From Erythrobacter sp. (GTDB lineage Bacteria > Pseudomonadota > Alphaproteobacteria > Sphingomonadales > Sphingomonadaceae), in NCBI GenBank assembly GCA_963691825.1, contig OY829379.1:1472215-1536214 (forward strand): a stretch of DNA of 64,000 nucleotides, given 5' to 3'. The position numbers were made by a program, and so were the translations under genes. Under the pieces are notes generated by a model. It was not told where the DNA came from, ran no database searches, and saw only the letters and a list, made by a program, of their open reading frames with translations. This document shows, piece after piece, positions 26,319 to 32,137 of this stretch; position 1 is the stretch's first letter, and each line of letters begins with the position of its first letter.

Positions 26319-26834
26319 TTAGATCGCTTTCTGCGCCAATGCCGCCAGCTCATCATAGATCGCGTCTTCTTCGCGGCTTGCGGCGTTGCGCCAAGTGGTC
26401 GCGGTGTCGCGGTTGAGCAGCGCGCCATCTGCGCTCAGCACCAGAAGATTGGGTGTGCCGGGCAAATCATCGACCCCGAAACGCCGGGCGATGTGCAGAT
26501 TATGGCCATCGCCCGATTGCGGCATGCCGATATTGACGAAGACAAGTTCGTATCTGTCATCAACCAAGGCGCCAATGCGTTCGCTGGCCAGCCATCCGGC
26601 GAGCTCGCGGCTGTCATGGCACCAGTTTGCGCCCATCACCACCATGACGCGTTTGCCATTTTCCCCGGCGCGGGCAAGCGCGGCCTCGACATCGCCCATC
26701 GCGTCATCGGACACCGCGTAAGAGCGCGCCTCGGGGTAATCATGCCCGTGCGCATGGGTGAGCGCGCCAGCCAGCATCCCTGCGCCGATCACAGCAGCGG
26801 TCGCCAGAAATCCGGCGAGAACAGGTTTGATCAT
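26319..26834 (-). CDS. Exported thioredoxin-family protein (single-Cys WCHDS)
   Basis: Signal peptide; [11 protein letters not shown] and GTPNLLVL (cis-Pro) thioredoxin fold. Confidence 0.85.
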
Positions 26835-27973
26835 TCGGCCGCTTCTGCCGCATGCGGGTCAAAGGCAACCGCTTCGCCGGCTTCGATCTTGGCGGCTTTT
26901 TCTTCGACCAGACGCACAATGTGATCGAGCATGTCCTCATCCTCAATCGTGTGCGCCTTCACGCCGGAGAGGTAGACCATGTGCTTGCCAGAGCCGCCAC
27001 CAGTCAGGCCAATATCGGTTTCGCGCGCTTCGCCCGGGCCATTGACCACGCAGCCCAGCACCGAAAGGCTCATGGGTGTCTTGATGTGTTCAAGCCGCTT
27101 TTCGAGCGTTTCAACCGTGCGAATAACGTCAAATCCCTGGCGCGAGCAGGAGGGGCAGGAGACCACTCGCACACCGCGCGTGCGCAGGCCCAGGGCTTTG
27201 AGCATTTCATAGCCGACCTTGACCTCTTCCTCCGGCTCGGCCGAAAGCGAGACCCGGATCGTATCGCCAATCCCGGCCCACAGCAGCGAACCCATCCCGA
27301 TCGAGGATTTGACCGTTCCGCCGATCAATCCGCCCGCCTCGGTGATGCCAAGGTGCAAGGGGCAATCCACCGCATCGGCCAATCCATGATAGGCCGCCAC
27401 AGCGAGGAACACATCGGACGCTTTGACCGCGACCTTGAAATCATGGAAATCGTGGTCTTGCAAAAGCTTGATATGATCAAGCGCGCTCTCGATCAGCGCT
27501 TCGGGACACGGCTCCCCATATTTTTCGAGCAGGTCCTTTTCCAAGCTGCCGGCATTGACCCCGATCCGGATCGCACAGCCATTGGCTTTGGCCGCGCGCA
27601 CAACTTCGGCGACCTTTTTTTCATTGCCGATATTGCCCGGATTGATCCGCAGGCAAGCGGCCCCGCCATCAGCCGCTTCGAGCGCGCGTTTGTAATGAAA
27701 GTGGATGTCGGCAACGACCGGGATATTGGCCGCCCGGGTGATCAACGGAAAGGCGGCGGTCGCCTCTTCGGTTGGGCACGAGACACGGATGATATCACAC
27801 CCCACCTCTTCGCAGCGGCGGATCTGATCGATCGTTGCCGCCGCGTCTTCGGTGGGGGTGTTGGTCATGGTTTGAACCGTGATCGGCGCATTGCCGCCCA
27901 CAGGAACATCACCCACCATGATCTGGCGACAATTGCGCCGGTCGATATCGCGCCAAGGCCGTACTGAAGACAT
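26831..27973 (-). CDS. ispG: 4-hydroxy-3-methylbut-2-en-1-yl diphosphate synthase
   Basis: [27 protein letters not shown] and GCVVNGPGE. Confidence 0.98.
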
Positions 27974-28047
27974 GGGGGCCGGTATAGGCGCGCAAAGCCC
28001 AAGGGGCAATAATGCAAGAGCGCGCTGTGTTCAGCCCGGTTGGCGGA

Positions 28048-28710
28048 TTACCAGCGGATCAGGGGCGGCGCGGCAAACCGCCAGAAAATCGCCCCGATAA
28101 AAGCCGGTGTCACATGCCAGAAGCCGATATGCAGAAGCGAATCGAGCGGGCAGGTGATGTTGTAAGCCAACGCGCCAAGCGCGCCGCTCGACAGACCGAT
28201 CAGCCAGCCCGCCCGTTCAAGCGAGACCGGCGCCCCGCGGCGCAAATGCCAAATCCCGGCCAATGCAATCACCGAAGAGGCGGCCAATCCGCGCGCGGCG
28301 CATTTCCAATAGAGCAGGCCCGGATCATCCATGCCCATTCCATGGTCATGCCCGGCCTCGATCGAAATGAGGGTGATCATCGCTGCGATGGGTAGGACCG
28401 CCAGGATTGCAGTGCTCCATTGCGAGGCGGAGGTGCGTTGCCCAATACGCGGATTGGCGCTGGCGACGAGCGCGGCGGTGCTGGCGACGCCCACAACGCC
28501 CAGCAGGCCGTTGCTGATCCAGTAAAAGGGTGATGCTTCGCCGGTCAAAGCGCCAAACCAAAAACCATAATACACAACGCAGGCAATTCCTGCTGCCAGT
28601 GTCGCACATACGATCATTGCGGCCCCGTCGCGCGGCCTCACCCGCCTAACCGGTGTCATATCAGCCGTTAGGGCGGCGATAAGATCATCTCGGGATTGGT
28701 GTTTTTCCAT
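28048..28710 (-). CDS. nrsF: NrsF-type (DUF1109) membrane anti-sigma factor
   Basis: DDLIAALTADMTPVRR N-terminus, six TM segments, conserved periplasmic Cys (WKCAARG, ITCPLDS) and HIGFWH; directly follows the ECF sigma. Confidence 0.88.
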   Translation of the reverse strand: MEKHQSRDDLIAALTADMTPVRRVRPRDGAAMIVCATLAAGIACVVYYGFWFGALTGEASPFYWISNGLLGVVGVASTAALVASANPRIGQRTSASQWSTAILAVLPIAAMITLISIEAGHDHGMGMDDPGLLYWKCAARGLAASSVIALAGIWHLRRGAPVSLERAGWLIGLSSGALGALAYNITCPLDSLLHIGFWHVTPAFIGAIFWRFAAPPLIRW

Positions 28711-28712
28711 TT

Positions 28713-29243
28713 CTACTGTTCTTCCTCGACCAAGGTGGCCAGTTTCTTCAGGCCACGATGGATATTCACTTTAACAAGACTTTCACTCTGCCCAGTTTTC
28801 TCGGCAGCTTCACGAATCGACAAGCCACTGATTTTGACCAATTCGATCACTTGGGATTGTTTGTGTGGCAATTGTTTGAACAAGCGATCGAGGCTGACGC
28901 GTGACATCACGACTTCTTCGTCACTGTCCTCAACCGCGTCGCCTTCAAGCAGTTCCTTGCTCTCATGTTTATAAACTTTGCGCAGGTGGTCGACCCAGCG
29001 ATAGCGCGCGATTGCGGCCATCCATGGCAAAAACGGGCGCGCCGGATCCCAGCTTGCTCGCTTGGTGTAAAGCGCAATCAGCACCTCCTGCACCAGATCA
29101 TCAATGGCGTGCGGGGGGATGCGCCGTTTGAAATAGCGTTCAAGCCAAACGCCCGCCTCTGCCAGCAACACATTGGCGGCGGCTTTATCGCCGTCCTGTG
29201 TTGCCATCATGAGGCGGGCGAAGGTTGGCTCGTCAGCGACCAT
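28713..29243 (-). CDS. sigF: ECF16 / SigF-type RNA polymerase sigma factor
   Basis: LMMATQDGD, DLVQEVL, WDPARPFLPWMAAIARYRWVD and LVKVNIHRGLKKL; paired with nrsF. Confidence 0.92.
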   Translation of the reverse strand: MVADEPTFARLMMATQDGDKAAANVLLAEAGVWLERYFKRRIPPHAIDDLVQEVLIALYTKRASWDPARPFLPWMAAIARYRWVDHLRKVYKHESKELLEGDAVEDSDEEVVMSRVSLDRLFKQLPHKQSQVIELVKISGLSIREAAEKTGQSESLVKVNIHRGLKKLATLVEEEQ

Positions 29244-29256
29244 ATCCCTACCTCGA

Positions 29257-29730
29257 TCAGGCCTCCGTACGCGCGCTCAGGCGGCTCAAGATGTGATCGA
29301 CGCTCAAGACGCCGGGGCCGCGGCTGATGATGATGCCAGCCATAGCCAGCACGGTGATGTCCCAGCCGAAGAAATGCGCCCAAGTGGGGAATACAAAAAT
29401 CTGGATCACCAATGCCATCACCGCAAGGCCGGCCGCAGCAAAGCGGCTAAACAGGCCAACAATCAGCAGGATCGGCAAAAGAAATTCTGCATAGACCGTC
29501 ATGGGCACCGCCAGATCAGGCGCGATTGGCAGGCCTGTAAATTCATTGGCGAAGATGACGTATTGGGTCGGATCGATTTGCAGCCATGTGCCATCGATCA
29601 CCTTGGTTTCATAGGAGCGCCAGAAGATCAGACCCAATGCAATGCGGGTGAGCAACAAAGCGACGCTTTCGATTGCAGTGCCCGACAAAATGCCGGTGAT
29701 CCGCGACCAGAGTGATTGAAGCGCTTCCAT
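29257..29730 (-). CDS. DoxX-family membrane protein (bufferin BufD-like)
   Basis: LLTRIALGLIFWRS, YAEFLLPILLIVGLFSR and GPGVLSVD. Confidence 0.9.
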   Translation of the reverse strand: MEALQSLWSRITGILSGTAIESVALLLTRIALGLIFWRSYETKVIDGTWLQIDPTQYVIFANEFTGLPIAPDLAVPMTVYAEFLLPILLIVGLFSRFAAAGLAVMALVIQIFVFPTWAHFFGWDITVLAMAGIIISRGPGVLSVDHILSRLSARTEA

Positions 29731-29905
29731 TATGTCCTCCGTTGGAATGTGGACGTTTGGCTTTTACCTGATGGGCCAAACGGATGAATTGGATTCTGGC
29801 CGCTTGCTCACTCTTCTCATCGCTCGTGTAAATAAGGCCAGTGTGGCCCAAGCGGGATAGGAAAAGCAAGCAAGCAGACCGGATGGGTTGGTTTGCCCCG
29901 GCCGA

Positions 29906-30187
29906 TTAGCGGTCGATCGGGGTTAGCGAACCTTTGCCCTTGGGGGTTTCGATACTGGTGCAGGTCCCCTTGTCGACATAGGTCCAGGCATTGCCTTGAT
30001 AGTCGCGGGTTGAAGTGCCAGCGCAGCTTGTACCCGGACCAGCGGCGCAATCATTTTCGCCAGCAAGCGAGACGCCGTAACATTTCTCTTTGGCACCTTG
30101 CGCAGCAGCAGGCGCGGTCGCAAGACCAGCGGTGACGCCAGCGCTCAAAGCGAGACCGGCAAGCGAAGCGATAGATCTGGTATTCAT
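29906..30187 (-). CDS. DUF2282 / BufA1-type bufferin precursor peptide (93 aa)
   Basis: Signal peptide ending AAA; core [26 protein letters not shown]...[11 protein letters not shown] with four Cys; SD GGAGA. True start is 30187, not 30493. Confidence 0.92.
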
Positions 30188-30257
30188 AGTTTCTCTCCAA
30201 AAAACCGTGTGCAAGTAAGCGTCCCGCAGCACGGCGTGCTCGTGGGACCGCACAGGT

Positions 30258-30283
30258 TTCGCGGCGGCGGAGCGAATGGTTAC
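30258..30283 (-). promoter_or_regulatory. SigmaF-type promoter driving precursor-doxX-sigF-nrsF
   Basis: Minus strand GTAACC (30283-30278), 16 nt, CGAA (30261-30258); exact match to the Caulobacter sigmaF consensus. Confidence 0.85.
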
Positions 30284-30319
30284 ACACAGAATGCAAAACA
30301 TCATTTTGCATTCTGTGTG
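30283..30319. repeat. Perfect 16-bp inverted repeat CACACAGAATGCAAAA-CATCA-TTTTGCATTCTGTGTG
   Basis: Read directly; lies between the two divergent -35 elements. Confidence 0.95.
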
Positions 30320-30343
30320 GCGGCGATCAGCGCAGCATTTTAT

Positions 30344-30369
30344 GTAACCACGCAGCGCGCGCGCACGAA
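30344..30369 (+). promoter_or_regulatory. SigmaF-type promoter driving MNIO-DUF2063
   Basis: GTAACC (30344-30349), 16 nt, CGAA (30366-30369). Confidence 0.85.
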
Positions 30370-30431
30370 TTATGAGATAGGTGCACACACACCTGTCCCG
30401 TGCGATCCATTTGTCTGCTAGTGGAGATGTT

Positions 30432-31301
30432 ATGACGACGCCGCGCGAACCGATCCCCCCTTTTGGAGGCTTTGGCCTTGGCCTGCGCCGCACCCATTAT
30501 GACGATTTTCTCAGCGGCCATGTGGCGGTCGATTTCGTTGAAGTGATCAGCGAAAATTACATGATCGAAGGTGGGCGACAGCTGCGCATTCTGGAACAGG
30601 TGCGGGCCAGCTTGCCGGTCATTGCGCATGGTGTTTCGATGTCGATCGGGTCGGCTGGCGGGCTTGATCGCGATCACCTTGCACGGCTCAAAATCCTCGA
30701 GCAACGGATCGATCCGCTGTTTGTGTCGGATCATTTGTGCTGGACCAGGACGAGCGCGCACAATTCGCACGATTTGTTGCCCATGCCTCTGACGCGCGAC
30801 GCGCTGGATGTGGTGTGCGACAATATTGACGAGGCGCAAAATGCTCTGGGGCGGGCCATGCTGTTCGAAAACCCGTCGAGCTATCTCACTTTCCCCGAAG
30901 ACGAGATGACCGAATGGGAATTCCTGAGCCAGATGGCACAGCGCAGTGGATGCTATCTGCTGCTCGATGTGAACAATATTTATGTGTCATCGCGCAATCA
31001 CGGTTTTTGCGCCGATGATTATCTTGCTGGCCTGCCGCTGGACCGGGTGCGCCAGATCCATCTAGCAGGCCATGATCCGGCCACGCCTGAACGCGATATT
31101 ATCATTGATACACATGACCGCGCGGTCGCCGATCCGGTGTGGGAATTGTACGCCAAGGCGATGGCCATGTTGCCGCAACCGGTCGCAACCATGATCGAAC
31201 GCGATGAGGATATCCCGGCAATTGGCGTGCTGCTCGATGAGTTGGACCATGCGCGCAATATCGCTGGCGGTGCGGGGCACAAGGCGCTCGAACCGGCATG
31301 A
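30432..31301 (+). CDS. MNIO / DUF692 multinuclear non-heme iron oxidase (BufB-like)
   Basis: [53 protein letters not shown] and IERD; SD GGAG before the ATG at 30432. Confidence 0.95.
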
Positions 31302-32137
31302 CCAAACGTTCTGAAGGCACCTCAGCCAAGCCGCCCCGCGCCGACCTTGCTCAGCGACAGCAGGCCTTCTTGCAAGCGATCCATGACGATCGGGCGCCGC
31401 TGCCCTCGGGATGGGGCAATCGCCAGGCTGCGGGCATGGCGGTCTATCGCGGCAATTACCGCTCTGCATTGATGGCGGCTCTGGCTGATCTTTATGAGCG
31501 CACCGCGCTTTATGTTGGCGAAGAGGCGTTTCGGCGGGCCTCTATGCACCACATAATCACCCAGCCTCCCTCGGGCTGGACGATTGATGAGGCGGGGGCA
31601 GGCTTTGACAAAACCTGCGCGCAATTGTTTGGCGACAATCCCGAAGTGAGCGAGCTGGCTTGGTTGGAATGGACCATGCGCGAATTGGCCAGTGCGCCCG
31701 ACACGCTCGCTATGGCCCCGGCCGATTTTGCCGAGGCCGGGGCGCATTTCGGCGATGAGGAATGGGCCAATCTGCGTCTTGCCTTGCAACCGCGCGCTGC
31801 CGCAAGGTTGGTTGGGCATGATTGCGAAAAGCTGTGGCGCGCGCTTGATACAGCCAGCTCGAACGCGCCCGATCGGTCGCACGCCCGGCTCGCCTCTCCC
31901 CAAAGCTGTCTCGTCTGGCGCGAGGGGGAGCGTCCCACTTTCGTGATGGTCGAGGCGGATCATGCGGCGGCTTTTCATGCGGTTGCGGGGGGCGCGAATT
32001 ACGCCGAAATGATCGGCGCCTTATTGGGCGATGATCCGGACCCCGCGCCGCAATTGGTCGAACACGCCGCGATGCGGGCTGGCGCGATTTTGGGCCGCTG
32101 GCTGCAAGAGGGGCTGATTGTGGGGCTTAACCCCTGA
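31298..32137 (+). CDS. DUF2063 / BufC-HvfC-like MNIO partner protein
   Basis: GMAVYRGNYRSALMAALADLY and ELAWLEW; ATGA overlap with the MNIO gene. Confidence 0.9.
   Translation: MTKRSEGTSAKPPRADLAQRQQAFLQAIHDDRAPLPSGWGNRQAAGMAVYRGNYRSALMAALADLYERTALYVGEEAFRRASMHHIITQPPSGWTIDEAGAGFDKTCAQLFGDNPEVSELAWLEWTMRELASAPDTLAMAPADFAEAGAHFGDEEWANLRLALQPRAAARLVGHDCEKLWRALDTASSNAPDRSHARLASPQSCLVWREGERPTFVMVEADHAAAFHAVAGGANYAEMIGALLGDDPDPAPQLVEHAAMRAGAILGRWLQEGLIVGLNP

Follow-up and report, generated by a model that had tools for sequence, protein, structure and literature searches.

A putative hybrid bufferin cluster of Erythrobacter: Buf1-type precursors, a Buf2-clade enzyme pair and SigF-type promoters

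Genes and promoters of the divergent cluster

The window analysed here, a 64,000-nucleotide stretch from Erythrobacter sp. (GenBank assembly GCA_963691825.1, contig OY829379.1, positions 1,472,215 to 1,536,214 of the forward strand), carries between positions 28048 and 32137 a divergent bufferin cluster, that is, a locus for a peptide made on the ribosome and modified after translation (RiPP) that is matured by an MNIO enzyme. On the minus strand lie bufA1 (29906-30187), which encodes a DUF2282 bufferin precursor of 93 amino acids with a signal peptide and four Cys (PF10048, 86 bits), a bufD-like doxX (29257-29730; PF07681, 50 bits), sigF for a SigF-like extracytoplasmic function (ECF) sigma factor (28713-29243; Sigma70_r2, r4_2 and ECF models) and nrsF for a membrane anti-sigma factor of the DUF1109/NrsF family (28048-28710; PF06532, 110 bits), with 13 nt between doxX and sigF and 2 nt between sigF and nrsF. 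On the plus strand bufB (30432-31301), encoding an MNIO maturase of the Buf2 clade (NF050167, MNIO_BufB; 361 bits, the cut-off being 310), is followed by bufC for its DUF2063 partner (31298-32137; PF09836, 55 bits), the start of which overlaps the bufB stop. Gene calls were based on open reading frames and on Pfam and NCBIfam profile scans, and by these means all six genes that an earlier note on this DNA had proposed were recovered in place, with the same families and strands; the profile matches likewise bear out its description of the locus as a bufferin-type MNIO system with a SigF/NrsF module of its own.

For bufB the ATG at 30432 is preferred, with GGAG 7 nt upstream, as the alternative GTG reading frame from 30381 would begin almost on the predicted transcription start; the bufA1 ATG is preceded by GGAGAG. 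All four Cys of BufA1 are invariant among 81 homologues, and NrsF has two Cys, in WKC and in ITCP, with a conservation of at least 95% among 74. Just ahead of the first of these, at residues ~118-127, NrsF carries a His/Met-rich stretch, HDHGMGM, of which the first His alone is at least 80% conserved in the same 74 homologues, and which may represent a lineage-specific set of metal ligands. A sequence search of the PDB with BufB matched only DUF692, TglH and MbnB structures, and the same search with BufA and BufC returned no match.

The 244-nt spacer between the two units contains two exact copies of GTAACC-N16-CGAA, one per unit and pointing outward, at 30258-30283 (minus strand, ahead of bufA1-doxX-sigF-nrsF) and 30344-30369 (plus strand, ahead of bufB-bufC and, ancestrally, of bufA2-bufB-bufC). 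This is the SigF-binding sequence of Caulobacter, defined by rapid amplification of 5' cDNA ends and reporter fusions (PMC3511200). Since only 10 exact copies are present in the 3.18-Mb genome (14 for a reversed-pattern control), the pair is not expected by chance; two correctly oriented copies in one spacer would arise with a probability of ~1e-7. In fact, both motifs are kept, with at most one mismatch, in 63 of 65 related divergent loci, across which the 16-nt motif spacers and the DNA between the motifs vary. The motif on the bufB side is found in 53 of the 55 loci lacking bufA2, mostly as GTAACG, and in the loci that keep bufA2 the plus-strand motif sits upstream of that gene. Transcription is predicted to start a few nt past 30258 on the minus strand and past 30369 on the plus strand. 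Precursor and maturase thus belong to two units, each with a SigF-type promoter, as the earlier note had proposed when it described them as separately transcribed.

An alternative in which the motif pair is coincidental and another regulator drives the cluster might find its binding site in a perfect inverted repeat (16-bp arms and a 5-nt centre, 37 bp in all) at 30283-30319, which lies between the -35 boxes, with the predicted transcription starts of both units downstream of it. Nevertheless, the conservation of both motifs and the chance estimate given above make this alternative highly improbable, the more so as the palindrome is confined to this genome. When the palindrome was considered as a conserved operator, a comparable repeat was found in none of 64 related spacers, and a repeat-element origin was rejected for both the palindrome and the bufA-doxX spacer, each being unique in the genome. 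The palindrome may act as a strain-specific operator, or it may have arisen through template-switch mutation.

Given the gaps of 13 and 2 nt, and as no further SigF motif with fewer than two mismatches lies ahead of doxX or sigF, read-through from the bufA promoter is the most likely source of sigF-nrsF expression, in agreement with the place at the end of the precursor transcript that had been assigned to these genes; such an arrangement would give a positive loop. The sole candidate for an internal SigF promoter has two mismatches and lies inside bufA, and was rejected; a locus of the same genus (L051), by contrast, has an exact internal motif. Scans for sigma-70 promoters and for terminators gave nothing above the shuffled background. 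The bufA-doxX spacer (29731-29905, minus strand) is 175 nt long, against a median of 73 nt in the relatives, and as RNA is predicted to form a long hairpin (minimum free energy -63 kcal/mol, z = -3.8) that none of 200 shuffled sequences matched in folding energy. This hairpin may be an attenuator or a stabiliser, or else the scar of a bufB1C1 deletion, and it could set the ratio between bufA and the downstream transcript.

Elsewhere in the genome an exact SigF motif lies 63 nt before a gene for a YHS-domain lipoprotein (L009:868-1437, minus strand) and another 30 nt upstream of the gene for a 712-aa protein in which a DedA/VTT domain is fused to a pyridine-nucleotide-disulphide oxidoreductase (L007:1557 onward, plus strand); both genes are candidate members of a metal-stress regulon. 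In addition, four genomes of the genus without MNIO and without DUF2282 genes (G004, G005, G007 and G024) carry a higher-scoring NrsF paralogue (146-153 bits), which points to a second SigF/NrsF-type module with other targets in Erythrobacter.

Enzyme clade and history of the locus

The earlier note could not say whether the divergent layout had been described, and named its being common across Sphingomonadales as something that would lower its novelty; a synteny survey shows that it is common, the layout being the norm in this bacterial group. The cluster is flanked on the left by ispG (26831-28009, minus strand) and on the right by an alpha/beta hydrolase gene (from 32118, plus strand), and when the 80 loci nearest to it in named genomes are compared, about 65 reproduce exactly the order ispG, nrsF, sigF, doxX and bufA leftward and bufB, bufC and hydrolase rightward, most of the others being contigs that end early. 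E. longus DSM 6997 (locus L070) is one Erythrobacter with this layout. The loci compared come from Erythrobacter, Porphyrobacter, Qipengyuania, Pontixanthobacter and Altererythrobacter, and also from Sphingobium indicum BiD32 and Sphingomonas sp. 37zxx. A wider sample covered 105 genera of the same GTDB family with 200 genomes, and its coordinates were paired by hand; of its ~82 BufB loci, ~37 diverge from a DUF2282 gene, ~28 are canonical and colinear, and ~15 have no DUF2282 gene nearby.

Twelve of the related loci hold an open reading frame between the plus-strand promoter and bufB, and this frame encodes a precursor of the BufA2 family (NF050166; 104 bits, where the cut-off is 60). A wider tblastn search places bufA2 ahead of bufB in all the more distant relatives of the window BufB, and three members of the same genus show it as well. 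In a maximum-likelihood tree of 57 MNIOs a deep split separates the enzymes colinear with DUF2282 genes from those colinear with bufA2 (Shimodaira-Hasegawa-like approximate likelihood ratio test, SH-aLRT, 100), and the window BufB is nested on the BufA2-linked side, in a subclade (support 95) every member of which lacks bufA2; its sisters L037 and L048, of the same genus, keep the gene, and a single loss of bufA2 accounts for this distribution. The gap left between promoter and bufB is just 62 nt in the window, and a relaxed tblastn search for remnants of bufA2 in the bufA2-less spacers gave only weak matches, most of them on the wrong strand, and revealed no remnant.

The left arm of the cluster tells a complementary story. 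In the same genus, locus L051 has the canonical order bufA1-bufB1-bufC1-doxX-sigF-nrsF, and the window arm corresponds to this operon minus bufB1C1. Furthermore, in locus L148 (G162:C92:8500-20500), from a member of the family, two complete operons stand back to back, with bufA2, bufB and bufC leftward and bufA1, bufB1 and, further on, doxX rightward, and the window BufC matches the BufC of the Buf2 arm of this locus, not that of its Buf1 arm. The hybrid clusters probably descend from the arrangement seen in L148. The simplest account would then have three steps: two paralogous operons would have come to lie back to back, the buf1 arm would have lost its enzymes and, in Erythrobacter, the buf2 arm would have lost its peptide. 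We therefore hypothesize, with a probability of roughly 0.7, that the cluster is a SigF/NrsF-controlled bufferin system assembled from the complementary remains of two back-to-back paralogous operons.

A loop of BufA1, AAGPGTS, was considered as a signature specific to hybrid clusters and rejected, as it is also found in the canonical loci L051 and L052 of the same genus. In a variant found in two other loci of the family, L147 and L149, the bufA2-bufB-bufC arm begins with sigF-nrsF and diverges from bufA1-doxX; sigma and NrsF genes are stated in a published survey to occur in Buf1 biosynthetic gene clusters and not in Buf2 ones. Three tandem BufA2 genes ahead of a single bufB-bufC pair are found in an uncultured alphaproteobacterium (L130).

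The earlier note described the layout as split and as one that would allow precursor and maturase to be tuned independently; taken further, this would make the locus a canonical buf1ABCD operon that was split as an adaptive regulatory innovation. The divergent orientation and the two separate promoters are real, and in the relatives the -35 hexamers do differ systematically between the precursor and the enzyme unit. Where bufA2 is missing, the bufA1 promoter reads GTAACC in 54 of 55 loci and the bufBC promoter GTAACG in 42 of 55; where it is kept, the pattern is reversed, with GTAACC at the bufA2-bufBC promoter in 11 of 12 loci and at the bufA1 promoter in only 2 of 12. The unit with the consensus hexamer thus tends to be one that encodes a precursor, the bufA1 unit where bufA2 is missing and the bufA2-bufBC unit where it is kept, and the other unit usually reads GTAACG or GTAACT (65 related loci). 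This pattern plausibly lends some support to a tuning of the peptide:enzyme ratio, although it perhaps reflects one or two evolutionary events only. Nonetheless, a split operon is improbable as an explanation of the locus: the enzymes belong to the Buf2 clade and not to Buf1, as the tree indicates, the bufB promoter is the old promoter of bufA2, dozens of species have the same layout, with variants among them that keep bufA2, and in the window itself both hexamers are consensus, with no asymmetry between the units.

Candidate substrates of the BufB/BufC pair

The proposed origin of the cluster from two operons would leave a Buf2-type enzyme pair next to a Buf1-type precursor. The genome encodes a single MNIO and no BufA2 (the best NF050166 score is 12.6 bits), and it holds two DUF2282 genes. 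The circuit is consequently not the self-contained one that the earlier note had supposed, because the second DUF2282 gene, of the lipoprotein type, lies outside the window (G000:C1:850327-850671, plus strand; L136:1357-1701), ~650 kb from the cluster and adjoining argB, and carries a SigF motif of its own, an exact copy at 850240-850265, ~60 nt before the start codon, with transcription predicted to start at about 850270. In its product a lipobox (LAAC) and an acidic linker accompany a near-identical four-Cys core. This remote gene is present in eight other members of the genus, all of them without bufA2, with an exact motif in seven; the members that keep bufA2 have one DUF2282 gene only.

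Enzyme and precursor also go together at a broader scale. Among 41 relatives, MNIO and DUF2282 occur together in all 21 positive genomes, and in the family sample an MNIO is present in 61 of the 63 genomes positive for DUF2282. One genome of the set (G002) has lost the bufA1 of the cluster and kept both bufBC and the remote precursor. BufA1 and BufA2 share CYG(V/I) around the first Cys, and a published study reports that their predicted folds closely resemble each other and that their central Cys residues show the same mass shift (PMC11626156). A conserved and co-regulated BufB/BufC pair that otherwise has no substrate makes it likely that DUF2282 peptides are matured in trans, and this is the most likely role that we would assign to the Buf2-type enzymes of this genome. 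More broadly, we think it reasonably probable that the Buf2-clade MNIO/DUF2063 pair serves in trans as a hub for separate SigF-driven DUF2282 units, a lipoprotein bufferin among them, and that this state was reached by reciprocal gene loss between two paralogous operons, with the peptide retained in one and the enzymes in the other.

Several points weigh against the reading of the cluster as a SigF/NrsF-controlled hybrid with maturation in trans. In the paper texts searched, no test of maturation across the Buf1 and Buf2 classes is reported, the published survey (PMC12452194) going no further than to note stand-alone precursors and to suggest more than one substrate for some MNIOs, and BufBC may serve a precursor of an unrecognised type. 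The window NrsF scores 39 bits, far below the NCBIfam equivalog cut-off of 300, and the scan found no sigma-70-type promoter for basal sigF expression. Moreover, the losses are single events within one clade, so that the locus counts are not independent observations.

In a different proposal, BufB/BufC is inactive on DUF2282 peptides, being either an orphan pair for an unrecognised substrate or a bystander to peptides that bind metal unmodified, simply through their Cys. The searched texts report no experiment linking Buf2-type enzymes to Buf1-type peptides, and stand-alone precursor genes are noted in numbers in the published survey (PMC12452194). However, bufBC is intact, at 70-83% identity, in at least 56 loci without bufA2, it shares its SigF promoter type with both DUF2282 genes, DUF2282 without MNIO is almost never seen in the family sample, and the open reading frames of the window show no further Cys-rich precursor in the vicinity of the cluster. 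For these reasons we regard inactivity on DUF2282 peptides as unlikely and favour maturation in trans by the BufB/BufC pair.

Based on the gene content and the promoters, we hypothesize that metal stress (Cu, Cr or Cd in the Caulobacter-type module) would cause NrsF to release SigF, which would then fire three promoters, all of one type: that of bufA1-doxX-sigF-nrsF, with positive feedback, that of bufBC and that of the remote lipoprotein-type DUF2282 gene. The single BufB/BufC pair would modify the central Cys of both precursors, putatively to the 5-thiooxazoles of bufferins, in the cytoplasm and before Sec export, and the periplasmic products, one soluble and the other lipid-anchored, would bind copper.

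Comparison with known bufferin systems

SigF/NrsF-controlled bufferin systems are already known as a kind, and the closest point of reference for the precursor unit is buf1 of Caulobacter vibrioides (bufA1B1C1D1, CC3254-CC3257; PMC11626156, PMC3511200). Both have a four-Cys DUF2282 precursor with a Sec signal and a DoxX protein, an adjacent SigF/NrsF pair, a GTAACC-N16-CGAA promoter and a similar distance between promoter and start codon. Unlike C. vibrioides buf1, the window bufA1 operon has no Buf1-type MNIO/DUF2063 genes, doxX follows bufA1 directly, and sigF-nrsF, which forms a separate operon in Caulobacter, provides the distal genes of the bufA1 unit. The enzyme unit resembles buf2 of the same organism (bufA2-bufB2-bufC2, CC2907-CC2905) in that its MNIO and DUF2063 proteins belong to the BufA2-linked clade and its promoter is of the SigF type; it differs from buf2 in that bufA2 is missing from both operon and genome, and the enzyme genes diverge from a neighbouring unit for a Buf1-type precursor. 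The cluster also shares its architecture, its promoter pair and its single maturase pair with two-precursor hybrids of the Sphingomonadaceae sensu lato (such as L113, L115, L150 and L147), most of which have bufA2 ahead of bufB, whereas the window lineage has lost bufA2 and has the remote lipoprotein-type DUF2282.

In terms of type, the cluster has the four-Cys DUF2282 precursor and the DoxX protein of a Buf1 system without colinear MNIO/DUF2063 genes or an MNIO of the DUF2282-linked clade, and it has the BufB equivalog followed by a DUF2063 protein of a Buf2 system without a BufA2 (BUF_6/12Cys) upstream of the MNIO. As for its regulation, an ECF sigma gene and a two-Cys DUF1109/NrsF gene 2 nt apart, together with GTAACC-N16-CGAA targets, correspond to a Caulobacter-type SigF/NrsF module. 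Because it thus fits neither type, judging from its genes, the cluster is best described as a hybrid bufferin variant. Neither hybrid Buf1/Buf2 clusters nor Erythrobacter loci are described in the literature and supplements searched. To the known systems the window adds a phylogeny with a single loss, a lipoprotein precursor encoded at a distance, a series of reciprocal losses and the -35 pattern.

Among the RiPPs made by MNIOs, no group larger than the bufferins is known, and published work regards Buf1 and Buf2 as running in parallel with separate sets of enzymes. If Buf2 enzymes do mature DUF2282 peptides, substrate recognition in the MNIO family would be broader than assumed, which would matter for genome mining, where hybrid clusters are probably lumped with Buf1 biosynthetic gene clusters, and for the engineering of thiooxazole peptides. 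The relatives provide a natural knockout series, from two full operons (L148) through one enzyme type with both peptides (L113 and L150) and one enzyme type with only the peptides of the other type (the window) to one with the remote peptide only (G002). The lineage likewise offers a clean test of how promoter strength sets the peptide-to-enzyme ratio. The locus is ordinary for its lineage, yet it makes cross-class RiPP maturation directly testable.

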